Virus record (IMG/VR): IMGVR_UViG_3300008120_009632
Location: 23,452-87,451 of that record
Length of the DNA: 64,000 nt
Source of the DNA: a virus
Direction: 5' to 3' (one strand)
Under the pieces are notes generated by a model. That model searched no databases, was not told the origin of the DNA, and worked only from the letters and a program-made list of their open reading frames with translations. Positions within the stretch are counted from its first letter, which is position 1. Each line of letters starts with the position of its first letter. Of this stretch, positions 23,282 to 63,148 are shown one piece after another. A program made the translations under genes and the position numbers.

Positions 23282-24661
23282 CTAGAGGCTATCAATATGA
23301 GAATAACTATTATTTTTAGTACATCCAGCCTGATAATATGTAATTCCATTAATAATTACAGTATCTTGTGCTGATCTAGGATCATCAAAATCACAAACTG
23401 CTATTCTGGAAAGAACAGCATTAGTAGGAGGTGTTCCGGTTGTACTAGTATACGGATTACCACAAGGACTACCAGTATTAAAAGTATAACTATTATCCCA
23501 TGCTCTAATATTCATTTGATCAGCAATTTCATCTATTCTACAGAATAGAGCAAAATTTGTTCCAGCAGCAAATACCAATCCTACAATTTTTAACACACCT
23601 CCTATATCTGCTATTACAGCAGATCCAGAATCTCCAGGTACTATCGGATAATCTCCTCCATCTTCATATATAAAATATACAATATTATTAAATGTAATAA
23701 CATGACTATTCATAGAAACAGAGCTGGACGCTCCGACTAGATAAGGGATAAGCCTACAAGATACTGTTTCTTCCCATCCTTTTGGTCCAGTGGTTCTACC
23801 TGTAGAATATAATCTATTATTATCTGATAATAAATTATCTATTTCTAATGTTGTAGCGAATGGTAGTTTTGAAGTCATTTGTGGTAAAGTTGAGGGCTTA
23901 TGTATAGCAAATGATTGATTAGTGACTATATTATTATCTAAAAATAACACAGCACAATCAACAGTATTTCCCAATGTTTTTCTAAATGAAGAATACCTTT
24001 TGATTCTTGGGCCAGAAAGGAATAGGCCACCGGTACTAGTATCGTTACAGAGAGATCCTGGCGCTCCACTTATTGATGGGATTGGCGGCCAAGCTCTTTC
24101 TTCATATATATTATATGGATCATTTGTCTCTTGATTTTTTATTCTATCAGAAGCTAGAAATGGATTATTGCAAACAACGTGAGCATTTGTTATTCCAATA
24201 ATATTATTATCTACATTATCTATAGCTAAAAAACCCAATGTTCCAACAGTAAATGACCATTGTGTTTGTCCCCCAACTACGGAAGATGTTGCTCCGGTTG
24301 GGAATTGATATATTTCTTGTCCTCCTTTAATAGGATATAAAAATGCGGGATTTCCACGAAGTCTATTTATTTCGCTATCTAATGGTGATCTGCTATAACA
24401 TTCTATACCTGATGGCAAAGTTGATTGCTCGATAACATCTGTAGTATAAGAGTTACCTCCAATATTTACAGAAGACGGTAGAATTTCATCAGGATTTAAT
24501 TCTGATAATGGTTTTTTCTTATAAACACTAAAGACTATACCTATTTCATTTGTTCTTTGATTATTAACAAATTTATATCCTAATCCAACAGAGTGTACAT
24601 TTTCTGGAGTATCATTATACAAATCTGGTATTTGAGATTTTAACGCTTCTGTTAAATTCAT
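23282..24661 (-). CDS. Chymotrypsin-fold serine protease with N-terminal pro-like domain
   Basis: GTLG, TNAHV, DCA, GRTTG, GDSGS. Confidence 0.85.
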   Translation of the reverse strand: MNLTEALKSQIPDLYNDTPENVHSVGLGYKFVNNQRTNEIGIVFSVYKKKPLSELNPDEILPSSVNIGGNSYTTDVIEQSTLPSGIECYSRSPLDSEINRLRGNPAFLYPIKGGQEIYQFPTGATSSVVGGQTQWSFTVGTLGFLAIDNVDNNIIGITNAHVVCNNPFLASDRIKNQETNDPYNIYEERAWPPIPSISGAPGSLCNDTSTGGLFLSGPRIKRYSSFRKTLGNTVDCAVLFLDNNIVTNQSFAIHKPSTLPQMTSKLPFATTLEIDNLLSDNNRLYSTGRTTGPKGWEETVSCRLIPYLVGASSSVSMNSHVITFNNIVYFIYEDGGDYPIVPGDSGSAVIADIGGVLKIVGLVFAAGTNFALFCRIDEIADQMNIRAWDNSYTFNTGSPCGNPYTSTTGTPPTNAVLSRIAVCDFDDPRSAQDTVIINGITYYQAGCTKNNSYSHIDSL

Positions 24662-50125: not shown

Positions 50126-51787
50126 ATGATAAATACTACTATAGTTACTGGTATTTGGGATCTAGGAAGATCCAATTTATCAGACGGTTGGTCTAGGAAT
50201 TTTGACCACTATATAAACAATTTCAAAAAATTACTATCTAGTTTGGGTGACGATGTTCCTGTTATAGTTTTTATAGATAAAGAACATGAGGATATTGTTT
50301 GGTCTATTAGAAACAGATCAAATACAGCAGTATATCATCAACCAAAAGATGGTTTTTCTGGAAATTTTTTTCCATTTTTTGATAAAGTACAGAAAATAAG
50401 AACTAATAATCAATGGCTTGAGCAAACAGGATGGCTAAAGGATAGTACTCAAGCTAAAATGGAATTATATAATCCTATGGTTATGAGCAAAATGTTCATG
50501 CTACATAATGCAAAAATATATAATCCATTTAATACAGAATATATGTTTTGGCTAGACGGAGGAATAACTAATACTGTACATGAAGGTTATTTTAGTCATG
50601 ATAAGGTTATACATAAGCTAGAAAAAATAGTAGATAAATTTTTCTTTATATGTTTTCCATACGAAACAAATTCTGAAATACACGGATTTAGAATAGATGG
50701 GATGAATAGATACTCAAAAGCAAAAGTTAATAGAGTTGCCAGAGGAGGATTATTCGGTGGTCATATAGATTATATATCTGAAGCTAATGGATTATATTAC
50801 TCATTATTAAACGACTCACTTACAGAAGGATTAATGGGTACAGAGGAAAGTATTTTCACAATAATGACCTATCTTGATGAAGATACATATAAATATCACA
50901 TGATAGAGAATAATGGACTAATTAATAAATTTTTTGAAGATATCAAAAATATATCTAGTGAAGATATTAATAGCATTCATAATAAAAGTAGAAAACCTTA
51001 TGAAAATAATGATGTATTGTTGTATATAAATACATTTAATTCACCTGAACAACTCCAAATGGTTTTAGATAGTTTTGAATTATATGATAATAATTTTCTG
51101 AATAAAACAAAAAAAATACTAATTAATAATTCAACTAAAGTAAATCTAAAAGATCAATATGATAAAATATGTAATAAATATAATTTTATAGAACATATAT
51201 GTAAAGGTAATTTAGGAATTTGTGGAGCTAGACAATTTGCAGCAGAAGATTTTGACAATAAAAAATCAAAATATATGATTTTTTTTGAAGATGATATGCT
51301 ATTAGATCTTTCTAAAAATATATGTAATGTTGGATTTTCTAAGTATGTTAATAATTTGTATGATAATATCATTAAAATAATGAATAAAGAACACTATGAT
51401 TTTCTAAAATTTTCATTCGCTGAGTTTTTTGGACATAATGGAGATCAATGGAGTTGGCATAATTTACCATCAGAACAAAAAATTAAATACTTTGGACCAG
51501 TAAAGAAAAAACCACATACAAATATTAAACATATAAAAACATTTAATAATGTTCCATATGCTGAAGGAGAAATATATTATTCAAATTGGCCTCATATAAT
51601 TGATCAAGAAGGAAATCAAAAATTATTTTTAGACACTAAATGGGATAATCCTTTTGAGCAGACTTGGATGAGCCACATTTATACTCTAACAAAACAAGGT
51701 ATCGTTAAACCAGCTATACTATTAGCTAGTCCAATTACACATAATAGGGTTCATTTTTATGAAGGAAATGAGAGAAGAGAAAACTAA
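50126..51787 (+). CDS. HtrL/YibB-like glycosyltransferase domain fused to a GT-A domain
   Basis: TIVTG.WD, Y...VMSK, W.DGG, GG.FGG, GTEE; C-terminal N.GI.GAR, FFEDD. Likely start at ATG 50126. Confidence 0.75.
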   Translation: MINTTIVTGIWDLGRSNLSDGWSRNFDHYINNFKKLLSSLGDDVPVIVFIDKEHEDIVWSIRNRSNTAVYHQPKDGFSGNFFPFFDKVQKIRTNNQWLEQTGWLKDSTQAKMELYNPMVMSKMFMLHNAKIYNPFNTEYMFWLDGGITNTVHEGYFSHDKVIHKLEKIVDKFFFICFPYETNSEIHGFRIDGMNRYSKAKVNRVARGGLFGGHIDYISEANGLYYSLLNDSLTEGLMGTEESIFTIMTYLDEDTYKYHMIENNGLINKFFEDIKNISSEDINSIHNKSRKPYENNDVLLYINTFNSPEQLQMVLDSFELYDNNFLNKTKKILINNSTKVNLKDQYDKICNKYNFIEHICKGNLGICGARQFAAEDFDNKKSKYMIFFEDDMLLDLSKNICNVGFSKYVNNLYDNIIKIMNKEHYDFLKFSFAEFFGHNGDQWSWHNLPSEQKIKYFGPVKKKPHTNIKHIKTFNNVPYAEGEIYYSNWPHIIDQEGNQKLFLDTKWDNPFEQTWMSHIYTLTKQGIVKPAILLASPITHNRVHFYEGNERREN

Positions 51788-53039
51788 TAATACTATTTTT
51801 ATTCAAATTGCTAGTTATAGAGATCCTCAATTATTGCCAACATTAAGAGATATGCTTAGTAAGGCTGATCATCCAGAGAATTTAAGAATAGGTATTTGTT
51901 GGCAACATTCTAAAGATGATAGTTGGGATAATCTTGATGAATACGCTAATGATCATAGATTTAGAATTATAGATATTAATTATCTTGACTCCAAGGGAGT
52001 TTGTTGGGCCAGAAATTCAGTCCAACAATTATACGATAATGAAAAATATACTATGCAATTAGATAGTCATCATAGATTTATTGAGCATTGGGATACTGAA
52101 CTTATAGATATGATTAAATATTTACAAAAAAAGGGTCACTCCAAACCATTATTAACAGGATATATACCAAGTTTTGATCCAGATAATGATCCACAAGCAA
52201 GAGTTATGGAACCATGGAAAATGAATTTTGATAGATTTATTCCAGAAGGAGCCGTGTTCTTTCTTCCTGCATCATTTGATATTTGGGATTCAAAAGATGA
52301 ACCCCTACCAGCCAGATTTTATAGTGCTCATTTTGCTTTTACAATTGGAGAATTTGCTAAAGAGGTACAGCATGATCCTGAATATTATTTTCATGGAGAA
52401 GAAATTAGTATAGCAGTTAGAGCGTATACTCATGGATATGATTTGTTCCATCCTCATAAAGTTATTTGTTGGCACGAATATACTAGAAAAGGAAGAAAAA
52501 AACAATGGGATGATGATCCAACATGGTTTAAGAAAAATGATCGATGTCATCTAAAAAATAGAAAACTATTTGAAATGGATGGTGAAAAAAGAGATGTAGA
52601 TTTTAGTATATATGGATTTGGTACAGTTAGGTCACTTAGAGACTATGAAAAATATAGTGGCTTAAGCTTTAACAAAAGGGCAATACAAAAAAGAGTTTTG
52701 GATCATAAGGCTCCACCAGATCCAGAAACATCAGACTTAAATGACGATGAATTTAATGCAAAATTATTACAAATATTTAAACATTGTATAGATATACAAT
52801 ACTCTCAAGTTCCAGAAGATGACTATGATTTTTGGGCTGTTGCATTCAAAGATCATAATGGTAATGATATATACAGAAAAGATGCAGATAAAGATGAAAT
52901 ATCAAGAATGAAAAATGATCCTGATGGATATTGTAAAGTATGGAGAGAGTTTCAAACAGATCAAAAACCAAGCAGTTGGCTAGTTTGGCCTCATAGTATA
53001 TCTAAGGGTTGGAGTGATCCAATTACTGGCAATCTATAA
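51759..53039 (+). CDS. GT60 (Gnt1-like) hydroxyproline/polypeptide alpha-GlcNAc transferase
   Basis: IFIQIASYRD, G.CWAR, QLDSH.RF..WD, F.GEEI...RA.T.GYD..P, G..RSL.DY. Confidence 0.85.
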   Translation: MKEMREEKTNNTIFIQIASYRDPQLLPTLRDMLSKADHPENLRIGICWQHSKDDSWDNLDEYANDHRFRIIDINYLDSKGVCWARNSVQQLYDNEKYTMQLDSHHRFIEHWDTELIDMIKYLQKKGHSKPLLTGYIPSFDPDNDPQARVMEPWKMNFDRFIPEGAVFFLPASFDIWDSKDEPLPARFYSAHFAFTIGEFAKEVQHDPEYYFHGEEISIAVRAYTHGYDLFHPHKVICWHEYTRKGRKKQWDDDPTWFKKNDRCHLKNRKLFEMDGEKRDVDFSIYGFGTVRSLRDYEKYSGLSFNKRAIQKRVLDHKAPPDPETSDLNDDEFNAKLLQIFKHCIDIQYSQVPEDDYDFWAVAFKDHNGNDIYRKDADKDEISRMKNDPDGYCKVWREFQTDQKPSSWLVWPHSISKGWSDPITGNL

Positions 53040-53707
53040 TGCTTCATATTCTCGGATACTGCACAGACATAAATCATCAAAATATATCTTTTTTAAAAAA
53101 TAGATTACCGTCTTTAGAAATTATTAATTCTAATGAAATAGAATTATCTCAAACCTTTTATGCAAAATCGTATTACATACTTGAAAAAATAAAAACATAT
53201 AACAAAAATGATTATGTTATTGTTTGCGATTTATATGATGTTTTACCACTATGGTATACAAATATAGATAGTTTATACGAAAGTATAAAAATAAATTTTG
53301 ATCTAGATAAAATTACGTTTAATGCCGAAGTCGGTTGTTATCCAGATTGCTCTATTGCTAATTCTTATCCAAAACAAAACTATAAATGGAAATATCTAAA
53401 TGCTGGATTATATTTTGGTAAAGTATTAAACATTATAAATATGTTAAATATATCTATAGATAAAATTAAAACCGAAATGGATCAATTGGTATTTAGTAAA
53501 TTATTTTTAAGTAGTAATTTGATAGCTTTAGACTATGAATGTAGAGTATTTCAATCTGTATACGAAGGCACAATAGGCGGATCAATGAATTTGAATGATT
53601 TTTATATACAAGATAATATAATATATAATAAATATTTTAATACTAAACCATTGTTTTTTCACGGAAACGGAAAAACAAATATGTCTAAGTTATCTCCATA
53701 TTTGTGA
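53039..53707 (+). CDS. PLOD (procollagen lysyl hydroxylase)-type glycosyltransferase domain protein
   Basis: D.YDV, F.AE..CYP, YLNAG.Y.G, DQ, LD..C..FQ, P...HGNG. Confidence 0.82.
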   Translation: MLHILGYCTDINHQNISFLKNRLPSLEIINSNEIELSQTFYAKSYYILEKIKTYNKNDYVIVCDLYDVLPLWYTNIDSLYESIKINFDLDKITFNAEVGCYPDCSIANSYPKQNYKWKYLNAGLYFGKVLNIINMLNISIDKIKTEMDQLVFSKLFLSSNLIALDYECRVFQSVYEGTIGGSMNLNDFYIQDNIIYNKYFNTKPLFFHGNGKTNMSKLSPYL

Positions 53708-56122: not shown

Positions 56123-56724
56123 TATTAATCTTCGTGAAGAATTATCTTGTTCTGGTAAAAATTGTTTTGATAATAATTTTTTTATAAATAGCTTGAGTGG
56201 AGATATTGCTCATTTATCCTATAAAGGACTATCAACAGAGCAAAATCCTAATATTATATATCCTTTTAATACGTTAATAGCAAATGCCAAACCATCAAGA
56301 ATAATAGAGATAGGAACATTTTATGGTGGATTAACATTAATATTAAGAGCACTACTTCATAATAATATGCTATATAGCTCACAAATTTTCACATATGATA
56401 TAAATTGCCCTGCTCATCTCTTATCTTTAATTAATGATTCAAGCAATATTAAATCATATACCAAAAATTTATTTTCTGAATCTTATTCTGAAAAAGTGTG
56501 AGTTTAATATTTTGTCTGCTTATCTCAAACCCAATGATATCATCATGGCCCATGACTATTGTCCAAATAGAAACTATTTTGAAGACAATATGAAAGGTAA
56601 ACAGTGGAACTGGTGCGAGATAGAGGATAATGATATCAATAATAGTATTACTACAAATAATTTAACAAAATTTATGTATGAAGATTTTCTATCTGTCGGC
56701 TGGCTATGTATGAAAAAATCATAA
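56115..56724 (+). pseudogene. CmcI-like SAM methyltransferase split by an apparent deletion/frameshift near 56490
   Basis: 5' ORF has P..IIEIGT..GG..L and TYDI; 3' ORF has EF..L..YLK..D.IMAHDY in the +1 frame. Confidence 0.7.
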
Positions 56725-57630
56725 TACTGGATATAGTATTCCATATCCTTGATATTTTTTAATACCTTTATATTCTTTATTTTGCAAATCTTTAGCCGAC
56801 TGTTTAAACACATTAATATAATCTTCAACAGTATCTAGTTTATATTTTTTATATTTTCTATTATATGATAATAACAAACTAGCACATCCCACAACAAATG
56901 GATTACTCATACTAGTGCCACTCATTAAAGCATACTTATTTCCTGGAACACAACCCAAAATATTATATCCTGGAGCAAGAAAATCTAACGAATCTCCACT
57001 ACAGGTAAAGTCTGTCCTATCTAAATTTTCATTTATTGCACCAATAGCTATAGTATGATTATATTTAGCTGGATACATTATATCTGTATTTTTTCCTGAA
57101 TTACCAGCAGCACAGAACATTACGCAACCTTTGCTTGCCGCATAATCTATCGCTGATTCTAGTAATTGAGCAGGGTATGGGGAGCCTAAACTCATTGTAA
57201 TAAAATCTACTTTTCTATCAGCTGCCCATTTAATTGCTTTAGCTATATTATTTAAATTACCATTACCATTATCTCCAAGAGCTTTTACTGCTATTATTTT
57301 TGTTTTTGGTGCCACCCCTACCATACCTGTTCCATTATTTTCTGCTGCTATCGTTGATGAGACATGAGTACCATGACCAGCAATATCATTAACCTTTTGA
57401 TTAGGATTATCAAAATTTATACTATCTATTATATTATTTTTAATATCTTCATGATTTATATCACAACCAGTATCTATAACAGCCACAGTTACTCCATCTC
57501 CTTGAGATTTATTCCATAAAGATTTAATTCCAAATTTATCTATTTCCCATCCAGTAATTTGTTTTGTTTCTGGAGTAATTCCGAATAAATCTTCTCTTGT
57601 ATATGGTAGTAATCCAATTTTATTGACCAT
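56719..57630 (-). CDS. Subtilisin-family (S8) serine protease
   Basis: VAVIDTG, HGTHV, AAGNSG, SGTSMS.P. Confidence 0.95.
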   Translation of the reverse strand: MVNKIGLLPYTREDLFGITPETKQITGWEIDKFGIKSLWNKSQGDGVTVAVIDTGCDINHEDIKNNIIDSINFDNPNQKVNDIAGHGTHVSSTIAAENNGTGMVGVAPKTKIIAVKALGDNGNGNLNNIAKAIKWAADRKVDFITMSLGSPYPAQLLESAIDYAASKGCVMFCAAGNSGKNTDIMYPAKYNHTIAIGAINENLDRTDFTCSGDSLDFLAPGYNILGCVPGNKYALMSGTSMSNPFVVGCASLLLSYNRKYKKYKLDTVEDYINVFKQSAKDLQNKEYKGIKKYQGYGILYPVL

Positions 57631-58387
57631 TATGTTTCTCCATTATTTTAATTTTTCGTTCTTTTATCCATGATATAAATTTGCTTATTCTTGTATGACC
57701 ACACTCATCTCCGTATGTGGAATCTGGTTTTTTATCGGCAGCCATAACACAGGAGTTTATTCCTGCTAATCTATTATCTATAAATAATCCACCACCACTA
57801 TCACCGCTTGCTATTATAAACTCTAGTGATGTTTTTTTATAGGAACCAGATGGTGAACAAATTAATAGATCATTGTCTATACTATCTATAGTATTTAATC
57901 CTGCTCTTCTATTATCATCAGATTTTATAGCGCCAGTTTCAAAAGTTCCAGTTAAACCATATCCGGACATACTACATACTTTATCAAGCTCATCTGTATT
58001 TTCATATAATTCAGGATAAATAGTTAATCCAATATCATTATCACAATATCCTATAGCTATATCTTTAAATCCAAAATTTTTTGGTTCAAATTCTATTGGA
58101 TATTCTAAATTTATTACTTTGATTGTTTTACCATTTATGGTAATATTACAACTTTTTGCTTCCTTTATAACATGTGCTGCTGTTAATATAAATCTATTAT
58201 CTATAGCCACAGCAGAAGCACAGTATTGTTTATTATCTCCAGCTATTCCACATAATTTTCCAACACAACTAAATTTTTGTCCATATTCTATATATTTCAT
58301 ATCTTCGTTATAAGGATCAATAGTTCCAGCAGATACTTGGAAAGTACTGCTTAATAGTATTATTAATAAAATAATATATTTGATCAT
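57620..58387 (-). CDS. Trypsin-like (S1) serine protease with signal peptide
   Basis: LTAAHV, DIA, GDSGG; hydrophobic leader after GGAG SD. Confidence 0.9.
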   Translation of the reverse strand: MIKYIILLIILLSSTFQVSAGTIDPYNEDMKYIEYGQKFSCVGKLCGIAGDNKQYCASAVAIDNRFILTAAHVIKEAKSCNITINGKTIKVINLEYPIEFEPKNFGFKDIAIGYCDNDIGLTIYPELYENTDELDKVCSMSGYGLTGTFETGAIKSDDNRRAGLNTIDSIDNDLLICSPSGSYKKTSLEFIIASGDSGGGLFIDNRLAGINSCVMAADKKPDSTYGDECGHTRISKFISWIKERKIKIMEKHNGQ

Positions 58388-58408
58388 AACTATCTCCAAT
58401 CGTTCTAA

Positions 58409-59410
58409 TCATACGGGAGGACAGCACTTTCCGTTTGTGTAAATCCAAGAACTTGGACAACATATTAAATCTCCATTACCATCAAGACCACAAGAATCAT
58501 AAGAAATTACACCAACAGAGACAGCAGTACTGATATTCCCATTCTGAGTTACTGTGTAATTTTCTAGAATAGATTGATTATTATTATATATTCCTATAAA
58601 TATATTTCCAGATATATATTCATAATTGATTGTAAAACACGAAGTAGGATTATCTGAATCACAAATTTCTAAAGCACCACCATTTGGGTCGAATCCTATT
58701 GTTGAGTCAACTTCCAGAGTATGAGCATCTGGACAAGTTACTGCCGGTCCATTTGATGGTCCTCCATCTGGAGGTTGTGGTGGAGTTGGAGGATCTCCCC
58801 AAGGATTTGTTCCCGGAGGAGGAGGAGGAGGAGGAGGAGGAGGAGATGGTGGACTAGGAGGACTAGGAGGCCCAGGAAACAATCCGCCACCACCTCCACC
58901 CGGAGGAAATCCTGGCTGATTAGGAAATCCTGGTTCTTCTTGACTATTGCAACTCCCACATTTACCATTGACAAAATTACCTCCACAAGGAGATAATGGA
59001 TTAGATGGAGGATATTCACTAAATTCACCACCTCGTTTATCTTGACATTCATTTTTACATCCGCATTCTGTCATTGACTTTCCAGGTTTTTTCATTTGTT
59101 GACAAGTTAAAATATTATAACAACCATCTCCATCTTTATCAAAATAACAAGTAGCTGTTGTTTCAGAGTCTACAATACCGCCATACGTTGGAGTCTTATA
59201 AAAGTCACAAATATTTTCATCTGTAAATCCAAAATCTTCTAATGTTTTTTTAGAACAATCAGCTTTTGATGATGCTTGTATACAAGCTTTAGGTCCTTGA
59301 TAACTAAAATAAGCTCCACACTTTTTCGGAGTAGCACAACATTGTGAACATATTGCATCAGATTCTTCTGATGACTGTATTTCAAAACTATTAAATTTAA
59401 ATATTTTCAT
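58409..59410 (-). CDS. Cys-rich protein with extensin-like poly-proline tract
   Basis: GPPSPPSPPSPPPPPPPPPPG; numerous Cys. Confidence 0.8.
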   Translation of the reverse strand: MKIFKFNSFEIQSSEESDAICSQCCATPKKCGAYFSYQGPKACIQASSKADCSKKTLEDFGFTDENICDFYKTPTYGGIVDSETTATCYFDKDGDGCYNILTCQQMKKPGKSMTECGCKNECQDKRGGEFSEYPPSNPLSPCGGNFVNGKCGSCNSQEEPGFPNQPGFPPGGGGGGLFPGPPSPPSPPSPPPPPPPPPPGTNPWGDPPTPPQPPDGGPSNGPAVTCPDAHTLEVDSTIGFDPNGGALEICDSDNPTSCFTINYEYISGNIFIGIYNNNQSILENYTVTQNGNISTAVSVGVISYDSCGLDGNGDLICCPSSWIYTNGKCCPPV

Positions 59411-59415
59411 TATTA

Positions 59416-60927
59416 TTATTGATTAATTATTAATGGTTCTTGACATACTGGAAGTATTGGGGGTAATGGAGTGGGATCGGGTATTGTAGAGGATGAACAA
59501 TCACCACTACCACATAAATAATTTAAGCAGGATAAGTATGAATCGTGTGGACCTGTTGGATCTTGAACACAATGACCATCAAAACAAATATATCTAGCAT
59601 CACACTTACAGCTACAAATTTGTTCAAATAATAATATATCATTAATATTATTTAATATTTCTATATTGCTACAAGGATTATTCGTATTCGGTATTGGTGT
59701 TGGACCTATACTTGTAGGAGGAGGACTTGGTGGACTTGGAGGAGATAAAGCTGATTGAAATGTAATCGAATTATTCATTCCGTCATATGCTACAAGAACA
59801 GGACCATTATCAAGTTGAGTACCAAATACAGAACTTATTGATTCATTACTGAATATCATTGCTCCACTAATAGGAGTATTTGATAAGTAACCTCCTGGTA
59901 AATCAATAATAATAGTTGGTTTATTATGCTCATTAATTTGAAACAAATCACCAGACGCTGATCCATTAGTCTTGCTAAATGTCATTGGACTAGTAGAAGT
60001 ATGAATTTTTACATACCTATCTCCTGTACCGCCAGAACAACTTAGCATCAATGGCCCAGCATCGGTGCCAATTTCTGATCCAATAGATGGAGTATTTTGT
60101 CCTGAAGAATTATAATTAGCAAGATTCCATATGCCTGACCATGATCCTACTAGATCTCCATTATCCTCATTCCATGTCACCATAATAGATGCCAAAGATG
60201 GATTTGGTGGAGGAGGGAGGTCACAGCACTCAGCGCCAATTTCCTGTCTTGTAATTTTATCTACACATATCCAATCTGAACCTCTTTTCTCTAAAGTTCC
60301 TGACACATATTTTCTACATGGAGGATCCGGATCTGGACTAGGCGGTGGACTTGGAGGACTAGGTGGACCAGGAGGTGGCGGTGGAGGAGGTGGTGGAGGA
60401 GGTCCGGGTGGAGGAGGATTTGTCGGATCACACATTGAATTATCACATGCTGGACAATTAAAACAGTCGGATACTTCTCCATCTTGTTCTCTTATGCACT
60501 GTCCACAAGTTGCACTAGTTGGATTATCATCACAAAATACTATTGTTGTACAACAAGGATTTTTATCTTCACAAGGATTTTCTACAGAGCATTTATAAAT
60601 ACATCTACTATCTCCACACTCTCCAATAATAGCACAATCATTTTCATCATATCCCATAAAACATTTTCTACTTACAGAATCAAATCCTATACATGTTGTG
60701 TATGTTATTCCTTCAAGATTTGCTTCGCTACATGAAACAGTAGGCTGAGCACAATCAGTGCAACCACATGGAGATGCTATTTCTGTCCACTCATTTCCAA
60801 CATTATATAAACTTGGTAAGCATTGCCAAACACACCTATTATCCGAACAAGAACAGTCGCTTCCTCCTTCAGTTGTTTGAATATTATACTGGATAGCATT
60901 CGGTATTGATAATTTAAATAATTTCAT
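59416..60927 (-). CDS. Cys-rich protein with several poly-proline/SPP tracts
   Basis: PPPPGPPPPPPPPPPPGPPSPPSPPPSP, SPPSPPSPPP; N-terminus MK(L/I)FK shared with its neighbour. Confidence 0.8.
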   Translation of the reverse strand: MKLFKLSIPNAIQYNIQTTEGGSDCSCSDNRCVWQCLPSLYNVGNEWTEIASPCGCTDCAQPTVSCSEANLEGITYTTCIGFDSVSRKCFMGYDENDCAIIGECGDSRCIYKCSVENPCEDKNPCCTTIVFCDDNPTSATCGQCIREQDGEVSDCFNCPACDNSMCDPTNPPPPGPPPPPPPPPPPGPPSPPSPPPSPDPDPPCRKYVSGTLEKRGSDWICVDKITRQEIGAECCDLPPPPNPSLASIMVTWNEDNGDLVGSWSGIWNLANYNSSGQNTPSIGSEIGTDAGPLMLSCSGGTGDRYVKIHTSTSPMTFSKTNGSASGDLFQINEHNKPTIIIDLPGGYLSNTPISGAMIFSNESISSVFGTQLDNGPVLVAYDGMNNSITFQSALSPPSPPSPPPTSIGPTPIPNTNNPCSNIEILNNINDILLFEQICSCKCDARYICFDGHCVQDPTGPHDSYLSCLNYLCGSGDCSSSTIPDPTPLPPILPVCQEPLIINQ

Positions 60928-61928
60928 AAAATTTTAGCTGCTATTAAACACCCTTTAGCAACAGCATGAAGAGGATCTTTTGCATGTTTAACTTCTTTGA
61001 TATTTAAAGGAAAGTCGTTATCGGTAATTTTTTTTGTAAATTCTTCTATGTATCCATCTGCTTGTGATGTTCCACCAGCAACTACTATAGTTAATGGATT
61101 CTTAAATTTAGGTAATAATTTATGACCAGTTAAAGCAGCAGATAATTGTTTAGTAGTATAATCTATTAGTCTTTCATAATATGCAGATACAGCAGCAAGA
61201 ACAGGATTGTCTGTCTGTTCTCCTATTTTAAAACCACCAGCCTCCTTTTCCGCTTGAACAACACTGTCAGGTTCTCCTGTGGCTACAGAACTCATACGAT
61301 CTATCCAATCCCCAGACTTTGTTGTGCTAAATGTTACCGTAGGTTCTCCATTAAGCATCACACAAACATTTGTCATACCAGCACCACAACTAACACCAAT
61401 TCCAGTATAATCTTCATTTTCTAATTCAGCATAACATAGAGCTTCTGCTTCATTTATTGCTCTCGCCTCATAACCAATTTCTGCCAGAATTGTTTTTACT
61501 ACATCTTCATGATATCCAACATCAAAATCTTCATCTTCTTGATCTACTGGTTGAGCAGGAATACAGAATACTAATTTTTCACCTTGCTCTGAAGATTTCT
61601 GAACAACTTCTTGTAAGATAAAAGCTAATATTTTTTTAGCATCTTTTTCTTTTGAGGATACGACACCCTTATACATCGGTCGCCTCGCCGTATCATTTCT
61701 TTCTACTGCTTTTTCTATTGCATCTTTTCCTAGCAGAATAAATGATCCGTCACTATCTTTAATAAAAATTTTCCCAGTTAGTCCCTTTTCTATCATTTTT
61801 GTTGCTACTGGAGTTGTAGGCTTAATAATATAAAAAGCATCTCTAAAATCTTTGTATGATATATTTCCAGAACTTATTTCTTCTGATAAAACTATAAAAC
61901 TTGTTCCGACATCTAAACCTTTTGCCAT
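60924..61928 (-). CDS. Actin-fold ATPase resembling the volactin family
   Basis: Phosphate-1 GLDVGT, RRPM..G, INEAEA connect-1, S.GAGMTN phosphate-2, GD.ID, VAGGT adenosine, P..AVAKG. Confidence 0.85.
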   Translation of the reverse strand: MAKGLDVGTSFIVLSEEISSGNISYKDFRDAFYIIKPTTPVATKMIEKGLTGKIFIKDSDGSFILLGKDAIEKAVERNDTARRPMYKGVVSSKEKDAKKILAFILQEVVQKSSEQGEKLVFCIPAQPVDQEDEDFDVGYHEDVVKTILAEIGYEARAINEAEALCYAELENEDYTGIGVSCGAGMTNVCVMLNGEPTVTFSTTKSGDWIDRMSSVATGEPDSVVQAEKEAGGFKIGEQTDNPVLAAVSAYYERLIDYTTKQLSAALTGHKLLPKFKNPLTIVVAGGTSQADGYIEEFTKKITDNDFPLNIKEVKHAKDPLHAVAKGCLIAAKIL

Positions 61929-61932
61929 GCTT

Positions 61933-62223
61933 TTATCCTTTCATACTTTTTAATTTACTAATAGAGGACACTATATTCTCATTGGATTCTGTTGATTGTG
62001 CAATATCTTGATATTTTTTTTCTAATCCAGTAGTTTTTATCTCCGTAACAAATTTCTTATCGTCTATATCTATTTTTGGTTTGTTTTTAGATTTTGATAC
62101 AATAGACTGTCCTGGAGCCAATGCTTCGATAATATTATTTCTACCTAATAATAGTCCAATACTAAAAAATAATATATTTAAGGACACTACACATAATATA
62201 ATCAATATTTGGTATATATCCAT
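61933..62223 (-). CDS. Small N-terminally membrane-anchored protein
   Basis: TM helix, then IDIDDKKFV and SISKLKSMKG; directly precedes the actin-like gene. Confidence 0.75.
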   Translation of the reverse strand: MDIYQILIILCVVSLNILFFSIGLLLGRNNIIEALAPGQSIVSKSKNKPKIDIDDKKFVTEIKTTGLEKKYQDIAQSTESNENIVSSISKLKSMKG

Positions 62224-62244
62224 AATAAATAGTATTCCTTATAA

Positions 62245-62256
62245 ATAGATTACACC
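62245..62256 (-). promoter_or_regulatory. GGTGTA-class putative promoter (GGTGTAATCTAT)
   Basis: Intergenic, heads the actin-like operon. Confidence 0.55.
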
Positions 62257-62260
62257 TAAC

Positions 62261-63148
62261 TTAATTATTCACTAACTGGTCCAGACTACCATTGAAATAT
62301 TTGGTATAATGTGGGTCGTTCTCTATTGGCCAGTATCCACCTTTAGGATTATTACCCCATCTCTCTATTAGTGATTCATTTTTTTTAGCCATTTTATAGT
62401 ATTTTTTCCAATGTCTATTTATTATGTACGCTGGAGATGAGTGATACCACCCTACAACACAAGACCTATCAAAATTACTTCCAACATATGCATGGAAACT
62501 ATTATGACATATTTCAAACATGAATAATCGATTATTAATTGGTTTTATTTCATCAATTTTTTTGCCATTATAAGCATCATAGATGCCTGTTCCCCCACCA
62601 TAATAGTTCTCTAAATTATTTGGATTATTTAAGTAATACAAAAAAGCTATGCTTCTAACAACCTTTTCTGTATGAGGTTGGGCAGCAGCACTGTCGTCGG
62701 TATACATACAATTATTTACAACTATTTTTTTAGATAAATCTTTTTTAAAAGAACAGATATTCATATCTCTATGAATAAAACCATCTTTTGAAGGCGATTT
62801 ATGGAAATGTGCAGATGGAGACATATACTTATTAGTCTCTATACTAAAAGCACTTTCTGTAAAAGTCTTCAATTCATCTGATATAAAAAAATCATATCCG
62901 TCTATACAATCATCTAAAGATAATCCAGAAATATATCCCTCGTAGTTGCTCGTTGCCCCAGGCTGATCTTTATATGGGATAGTTCTATCTATAAAAGATT
63001 TAAATTTAGTACTAATTTTTTTGTAAATATCTTCATTAAATAAATTGTCAATAATTAAATAATTAAATGGTTTTTTAAAATACTGAAAATTAATACTACT
63101 AAATATATATGTATGTTTTTTTAAGTTATCTTCGATCAATTTATGCAT
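62261..63148 (-). CDS. 2-oxoglutarate/Fe(II) oxygenase, prolyl-hydroxylase-like
   Basis: PF...IIDN, HRD, R.IA.LYYLN, GGGT, P..NRL..F, SFH, R....W. Confidence 0.85.
   Translation of the reverse strand: MHKLIEDNLKKHTYIFSSINFQYFKKPFNYLIIDNLFNEDIYKKISTKFKSFIDRTIPYKDQPGATSNYEGYISGLSLDDCIDGYDFFISDELKTFTESAFSIETNKYMSPSAHFHKSPSKDGFIHRDMNICSFKKDLSKKIVVNNCMYTDDSAAAQPHTEKVVRSIAFLYYLNNPNNLENYYGGGTGIYDAYNGKKIDEIKPINNRLFMFEICHNSFHAYVGSNFDRSCVVGWYHSSPAYIINRHWKKYYKMAKKNESLIERWGNNPKGGYWPIENDPHYTKYFNGSLDQLVNN

Follow-up and report, generated by a model that had tools for sequence, protein, structure and literature searches.

To our knowledge, descriptions of phage cytoskeletons have been limited to tubulins (PhuZ/TubZ) and a single prophage actin (AlpC). 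PhuZ and TubZ of nucleus-forming jumbo phages form phage-encoded cytomotive filaments that organize the infected cell (PMC7950403), and AlpC and its adaptor AlpA from prophage CGP3 of Corynebacterium glutamicum are co-transcribed and needed for efficient replication of the phage DNA (PMC4446434). In archaea, volactin (VolA, HVO_2015; Pfam family PF25216) of Haloferax volcanii is a cell-shape factor that forms dynamic filaments in vivo, which span the cytoplasm with their tips touching the membrane (PMC10869688). Herein we describe a locus on a large freshwater phage that encodes an actin of the volactin family and, immediately upstream of it, a small membrane protein. The locus is located within a stretch of 64,000 nucleotides, hereafter termed the window, which is the final 64 kb of the 87,451-bp IMG/VR virus record IMGVR_UViG_3300008120_009632 (positions 23,452 to 87,451; estimated completeness of the record, 63%). 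We propose that the conserved unit at this locus is, on balance, a two-gene anchor-actin module for membrane-tethered filaments, with the remaining genes being neighbors or insertions. Its nearest known counterpart is AlpC/AlpA from prophage CGP3, and a literature search found no published volactin-family phage actin with a dedicated membrane anchor.

The phage actin-fold ATPase (334 residues; minus strand, 60924..61928) matches the Pfam Volactin model over its entire length (profile positions 1-321 of 321) with an E-value of 4.8e-63 and a score of 214 bits, compared with a cut-off of 35. When the same model was used in a genome search it gave 213.6 bits for the phage protein, and among 14 control genomes only that of H. 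volcanii scored above the cut-off. The match to MreB_Mbl (PF06723) is partial and falls short of the cut-off (26 versus 27 bits), and none of the NCBIfam models for MamK (NF040964; 30.5 bits), salactin (NF053533; 28.1 bits), and BeeR (NF053558; 27.6 bits) reaches its curated cut-off (400, 400, and 530 bits, respectively). An AlphaFold2 model of the actin, built from a 47-sequence alignment, has a predicted local distance difference test score (pLDDT) of 96 and a predicted template-modeling score (pTM) of 0.93, and its top matches in Foldseek are the MamK filament (TM-scores of 0.74/0.76), MreB from T. maritima (0.68), and the BeeR filament (0.73), all of which rank above EutJ, PilM, and DnaK. 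These closest solved folds are filament-forming proteins with membrane-associated partners (MamJ/MamY for MamK and RodZ for MreB), but the sequence models of MamK, MreB, BeeR, and salactin reject the phage protein, and its surroundings contain no genes for a magnetosome or elongasome.

Relatives of the phage actin number 408 in IMG/VR, and the locus counts given below (out of 80) refer to the best 80 of these, which are 81-97% identical. A family search of 1.84 billion representatives returned 948 matches, the best of which outside the window's clade is just 53% identical. Among 72,556 plasmids, homologs are found only on five haloarchaeal megaplasmids, including those of Halogeometricum and Haloarcula, and these are full-length, 35-37% identical, and have the same set of motifs as the phage protein. 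Among 50,697 phage records, homologs (~34% identity) are present only in two uncultured huge phages. Searches for related loci with the family members P0121, P0124, and P0128 gave window-clade loci or none at all, and it is on the two huge-phage records that the deeper viral context beyond the clade rests. In a tree of 100 rows, of which 98 are family members including the Halogeometricum and Haloarcula proteins, a branch with 97% support divides the family, together with these two haloarchaeal proteins, from MreB and FtsA of Escherichia coli. The window clade (99% support) is a separate branch of the family and the two huge-phage actins are at two other places within it, while ParM falls inside the family on an end branch of length 2.84, a position that we discount as a long-branch artefact. 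An original prediction, made from the DNA sequence of this stretch, had assigned the ATPase to the volactin family rather than to MreB, ParM, or FtsA using a series of short motifs. Every one of these motifs is present in the translation, and the assignment is borne out by the full-length PF25216 match, the rejections by NCBIfam, and the tree, just as the genome record and the related viral loci confirm that this is a volactin-like actin carried by a phage.

The protein encoded immediately upstream of the actin gene (96 residues; minus strand, 61933..62223) has no family match in Pfam, PHROGs, or NCBIfam. A hydrophobicity scan finds a single N-terminal transmembrane segment, which is followed by a disordered basic linker and a C-terminal region of ~47 residues that ends in ..SISKLKSMKG-COOH. 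The AlphaFold2 model has a confident helix at residues 3-34, a pLDDT below 50 at residues 35-45, and a C-terminal helix at residues 84-95. Only 4 nt separate its stop codon from the actin start codon, and a homolog (33-82% identical) lies just upstream of actin in all 80 loci, mostly with a gap of 1-6 nt. Thus the single-pass membrane partner that had been predicted for the actin is present throughout the relatives, and of the neighborhood that had been proposed along with it, this gene is conserved while the two poly-proline genes, discussed below, are not. The last ~47 residues are retained right up to the C-terminus, and the transmembrane helix and linker vary freely. Since basic residues follow the transmembrane helix, the positive-inside rule would place the tail in the cytoplasm, giving a predicted topology with the N-terminus outside and the basic C-terminal tail inside. 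By analogy, such an architecture is that expected of an adaptor that would present a docking peptide to a filament, as ParR does for ParM.

How does this pair compare with those described previously? In haloarchaea, too, the gene just before that of the volactin homolog, on the same strand, encodes a membrane protein, and this protein shares a short basic motif with the phage anchor. The haloarchaeal partner is, however, a protein of ~300 residues with four transmembrane segments that belongs to DUF7139, whereas the phage partner has 96 residues, a single transmembrane segment, and no Pfam family. The protein upstream of the Halogeometricum actin, which was the one scanned with Pfam, matches DUF7139 (PF23600) with 124 bits, and its Haloarcula counterpart looks alike. 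A 10-residue pattern from the anchor tail, [AS][VI][ND]xL[RK]x[LM][RKQ]G, is matched by exactly 3 of 1166 open reading frames (ORFs), namely that of the window anchor plus those of the four-transmembrane proteins directly upstream of the Halogeometricum and Haloarcula actin homologs. A motif common to the phage tail and the haloarchaeal membrane proteins is suggestive of a relationship between them but does not prove it. Volactin also differs in being encoded by a cell, while the phage actin is encoded by a virus and is found next to ruvB and replication genes. The resemblance to AlpC/AlpA is that both are phage-encoded actin-like proteins with an adaptor gene just upstream. On the other hand, AlpC represents a different actin family and an integrated prophage, in contrast to Volactin in large phages with terminal repeats, and AlpA is a DNA-binding protein that joins phage DNA to the filaments, whereas the phage anchor is membrane-bound and has no recognizable DNA-binding domain. 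In this respect the locus also departs from segregation systems of the ParMRC/AlpAC type, which use a DNA-binding adaptor and centromere-like repeats: here the partner is a membrane protein without a family match, and upstream of it there is either a gap of only 37 nt, as in the window, or ruvB itself, although no separate search for repeats was made. PhuZ and TubZ are members of the tubulin superfamily and so are distinct from the phage actin, and tubulin was not found in the five complete genomes of related phages (the controls were positive).

The conservation of the actin is very high. In the same genomes, the median identity to locus L002 is 83% for the actin, compared with 69% for RuvB, 56% for a subtilisin-family (S8) protease, 50% for a trypsin-like protease, and 42% for the anchor. 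The upstream RuvB is genuine, as it scores 293 bits with the NCBIfam equivalog model (cut-off 282). The ruvB gene is upstream in 77 of the 80 loci, usually directly ahead of the anchor gene, which abuts it in most relatives; the separation is ~3.5 kb in L002, where an accessory island intervenes, versus ~0.3 kb for the majority of loci. Ancestrally the genes are arranged as ruvB, anchor, actin, (HNH endonuclease), trypsin, and S8 protease, and in this clade the strand that encodes the pair also encodes DnaB, a split DnaE, and ribonucleotide reductase.

The window is derived from a phage contig of a large freshwater clade that has no cultured relatives. It has a GC content of ~30% and closely packed genes on a single strand, with a DnaB-type helicase and ribonucleotide reductase among them. 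For five of the relatives the record is a complete genome (138-238 kb), and direct terminal repeats are present in three of these. The terminases of these complete relatives and the DnaB of the window are only ~25% identical to their counterparts in cultured phages, and a search with the T4 gp23 family gave no match in the related records, nor in the controls. The genome-contig scan also found the actin on six short contigs of metagenome-assembled genomes, which were binned as Chitinophagia, Flavobacteriales, Alphaproteobacteria, Thermoplasmatales, and Saccharibacteria. Because these taxa are mutually inconsistent, we read the contigs as mis-binned phage DNA rather than as evidence for the host. 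A 5.5-kb stretch of the locus recurs in metagenomes of lakes and fresh water that come from at least 13 studies, with no RNA run among those that contain it. In a comparison based on contigs only from four metagenome runs (2024, 2025), most contigs are at least 99% identical to this stretch and a minority, which come from relatives, are 90-95% identical; the whole operon is ~99% identical across lake metagenomes of several studies and years.

As the actin is strongly conserved and is always paired with a membrane-anchored partner, we conclude that the phage probably builds its own membrane-tethered filaments. During infection, the phage actin would be synthesized and would polymerize with ATP in the same way as its archaeal founding member. 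The conserved ~47 C-terminal residues of the anchor, with the short helix at their end, would then dock on the actin, and this docking would tie the filaments, or the filament ends, to the cytoplasmic membrane. Since the pair is located directly after ruvB, on the strand that carries DnaB, split DnaE, and ribonucleotide reductase, its likeliest function would be the spatial organization of phage DNA replication or recombination at the membrane.

Several observations weigh against such a filament module. Polymerization is extrapolated from an archaeal protein that is 35% identical. The Asp found at the phosphate-2 position in MreB, ParM, and actin is replaced in the phage protein by S180 (..VSCGAGMTN..), and Ser is nearly invariant at this position throughout the volactin family, the haloarchaeal proteins included. 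The 10-residue pattern of the anchor tail was chosen post hoc, after the sequences had been viewed, and a profile built from the tail of the phage anchor matches neither the haloarchaeal nor the huge-phage partner proteins. In a few relatives (L108 and L117-L119) an island of ~4.4 kb is present between the anchor and actin genes (within 1625-7002 in L108 and ~1260-7002 in L117-L119), and that in L118 includes a 2-oxoglutarate (2OG) oxygenase-like gene and minus-strand genes. No other departures from the tight pairing were seen, but these islands mean that the coupling of anchor and actin is not absolute. Finally, the slot directly behind the actin gene is occupied in 15 of 73 distinct loci by proteins that are rich in Pro or Pro/Thr, contain Cys, and reach 2181 residues, and their recurrence leaves room for a functional link to the actin.

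The anchor-actin pair could also act in another way, as a device for host takeover and not as an organizer of replication, with filaments that deform the cell, block its division, or displace the host cytoskeleton. We consider this unlikely, but it merits discussion, as archaeal volactin is itself a determinant of cell shape (PMC10869688) and the anchor connects the system to the membrane and not to DNA. Furthermore, no DNA-binding domain or centromere-like repeats adjoin the pair, where the space upstream is only the 37 nt mentioned above and no dedicated repeat search was made. Against this, the pair keeps its place directly after ruvB among the replication genes, and AlpC with its adaptor AlpA, the one phage actin to have been studied experimentally, serves replication (PMC4446434), although neither point is decisive.

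The anchor and actin genes are followed in the window by four more genes, and the original prediction had treated all six as an operon. The six consecutive minus-strand genes do lie in the order that it described. A promoter-like hexamer, GGTGTA (62251..62256, minus strand), precedes the ATG of the anchor gene by 27 nt, and the stop codon of the actin gene overlaps the start codon of the next gene as ATGA, both of which are visible in the DNA. This next gene encodes PP1, a Cys-rich/poly-Pro protein (503 residues; minus strand, 59416..60927; 13% Pro and 8% Cys), and it is followed by those for a second such protein, PP2 (333 residues; minus strand, 58409..59410; 14% Pro and 7% Cys), a predicted exported trypsin-like serine protease (259 residues; minus strand, 57620..58399), and the S8 serine protease (303 residues; minus strand, 56719..57630). 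The hydrophobicity scan indicates a signal-peptide-like N-terminus in the trypsin and no transmembrane or signal segment in the actin, the S8 protein, PP1, or PP2.

If all six genes constituted one system, the poly-Pro proteins would act as regulators or nucleators of the actin, with the proteases processing components. The ATGA overlap favors this, as do the Pro-rich proteins that begin 2-30 nt past the actin stop codon in several separate lineages, and the position of the trypsin, which is encoded within the flank in 67 of the 80 loci and as a single copy, always beside the actin, in each of the five complete genomes. Nevertheless, such a system is quite improbable. PP1 has homologs in only 4 of the 80 loci (L002-L005) and PP2 in only 3 (L002-L004), a search of 5.8 billion proteins with the non-repetitive core of PP1 yields just 3 clusters, and an Atlas search with PP2 gave no usable match. 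Most of the distinct loci (58 of 73) have no Pro-rich gene in the slot. Neither PP1 nor PP2 has a family in Pfam (E <= 0.01) or PHROGs, a match in PADLOC, or a paralog on the contig, and the similarity of the two to each other is weak (E 0.077). More specifically, no actin-regulator domain (formin FH2, WH2, EVH1, or profilin-like) was found in either protein at the same Pfam threshold, and their Cys-rich composition is ill-suited to a cytoplasmic regulator. The proteases adjoin the actin only in this clade, vary in order and presence, and are not beside the actin genes of the two huge phages or the haloarchaea. A single functional operon of all six genes is therefore not supported, and neither is the parallel that had been drawn between the poly-Pro proteins and the proline-rich tracts of eukaryotic actin regulators. 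The caveat offered with it, that the coupling might reflect only shared timing of expression, is in our judgment the better reading.

The Pro-rich proteins also have an alternative set of partners in the window. In the window subclade, ruvB and the anchor gene are set apart by an inserted accessory island, which contains epimerase-like, sulfotransferase-like, and 2OG-oxygenase genes, and its member next to the anchor gene encodes a 2OG-Fe(II) oxygenase that is prolyl-hydroxylase-like (minus strand, 62261..63148; PF13640, 1.5e-07). Such a gene is present in only 8 of the 80 loci. Farther away, positions 51759-53707 encode a GT60 N-acetylglucosamine transferase (PF11397, 248 bits) and a PLOD-type glycosyltransferase (83 bits), which together with the oxygenase represent a possible set for hydroxyproline glycosylation, as judged from their sequence matches. 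With these enzymes in the same window, the Pro-rich proteins are more plausibly their substrates than regulators of actin. A prolyl 4-hydroxylase-like gene occurs in 6 of the 15 loci with a Pro-rich slot gene versus 5 of the 58 loci without one, but these represent approximately two independent lineages and we do not count the association as established. Insertions into the slot behind the actin are hypervariable. PP1 and PP2 represent a recent, lineage-specific insertion there, one that is probably connected with the neighboring 2OG oxygenase and the glycosyltransferases. They would be modified Pro-rich proteins and may be components of the virion or surface.

Pro-rich slot proteins are mutually dissimilar except for a short N-terminal Cys motif. 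Large proteins with Pro/Thr linkers follow the actin in L060, L064, L069, L081, L103, L104, L108, L113, L114, L117, and L118, and several slot proteins begin with a motif of the K-I-x-S-D-C-x-x-C type just ahead of the Pro/Thr tract, with that in L118 repeating the unit near its C-terminus. This motif may be a shared signal for processing or attachment. Within PP1 itself, an alternative in-frame allele of the N-terminal Cys-rich part (60672-60814; 135 nt in place of 141) is present in three lake-metagenome runs, with both alleles co-occurring in two of the three, and it looks like a diversifying cassette.

Both proteases appear to be catalytically intact, in agreement with what had been predicted for them. 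The trypsin matches PF00089 (1.6e-10, 41.6 bits, cut-off 20.6) and has legible TAAHV / DIAI / GDSGGG motifs. Its start is ambiguous (TTG at 58399 or ATG at 58387), and its relatives have a conserved ..AG|TIDP.. junction after the hydrophobic N-terminus. The S8 protein matches PF00082 (1.2e-53, 182.8 bits, cut-off 21.8) and phrog_3677 (3.6e-82), with intact VIDTG / HGTHV / GTSMS motifs, and its best NCBIfam match is mycosin at 180 bits, which is below the cut-off of 278. It is encoded near the actin in 34 of the 80 loci, and its order relative to the trypsin is flipped in some. We regard the putatively exported trypsin and the predicted cytoplasmic S8 protein as syntenic neighbors that are conserved within the clade and that would function separately from the actin pair.

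With regard to expression, GGTGTA occurs 13 times on the minus strand of the window and 3 times on the plus strand. It is found ~25-32 nt ahead of the anchor gene in L002, L003, L012, L047, L060, L064, and L069, only where there is an intergenic gap, and is sometimes preceded by a terminator hairpin; where there is no gap the anchor gene is coupled to ruvB. Scans for sigma-70 promoters and terminators gave no signal above that of shuffled controls. A second GGTGTA (58513-58508, minus strand) falls inside the 3'-terminal part of PP2, ~110 nt ahead of the start codon for the trypsin, and could be a candidate promoter for expression of the proteases independently of the actin unit.

It is very improbable that the actin is instead a non-polymerizing ASKHA ATPase (chaperone-, kinase-, or EutJ-like) that scores with the Volactin model by chance. 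In favor of such a reading are the replaced phosphate-2 Asp and a search of the sequences of PDB chains in which the sole match is EutJ (E 0.44). Against it, the protein fits the Volactin model from end to end with 179 bits to spare over the cut-off, resembles filament structures most closely, is more conserved than RuvB, and has an obligate neighbor in its dedicated membrane partner. The family, fold, and tree results therefore separate the protein from such enzymes.

The actin locus is also associated with mobile elements. A gene for an HNH endonuclease of ~100 residues (PF01844) follows the actin in many loci (~+0 to +300 nt), and in L058 an endonuclease-like ORF (429-2345) lies between the anchor and actin genes. 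The volactin gene of P0122 (695 residues) is interrupted at profile position ~196, just past the phosphate-2 loop, by a LAGLIDADG intein. In L087 (G010:C50) the volactin match in a 707-residue frame is split at the same profile position, and this actin is probably interrupted by an intein as well. Selfish or homing elements thus seem to target this highly conserved locus. Among the family members with N-terminal extensions, P0125 (729 residues) has two volactin matches, and P0145 (654 residues) has a weak ParB helix-turn-helix match (21.1 bits, cut-off 22.6) fused to its volactin domain, which hints at DNA-linked roles in other lineages.

What the anchor-actin module means extends beyond this one locus. 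This phage actin of the volactin type surpasses RuvB in conservation, and hundreds of viral contigs from lakes around the world carry it. The negative result also matters, as it shows that the system does not conserve the poly-proline proteins that would connect it with actin regulation in eukaryotes. If the phage does build membrane-tethered filaments, then large phages that lack tubulin also organize the infected cell with filaments of their own, and volactin, which has so far been studied in one archaeon, would gain a small and tractable partner-binding system. More tentatively, and with somewhat less than even confidence, we suggest that a very abundant clade of freshwater phages (138-238 kb) and unrelated huge phages build a membrane-tethered actin cytoskeleton, that the module and its docking motif may share ancestry with the haloarchaeal volactin-DUF7139 pair, and that the Pro-rich proteins of the slot are possible cargo or partners. 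If so, this would represent an ancient two-part filament system that has passed between viruses and archaea, and would be the equivalent, built from actin, of the tubulin spindle formed by PhuZ.

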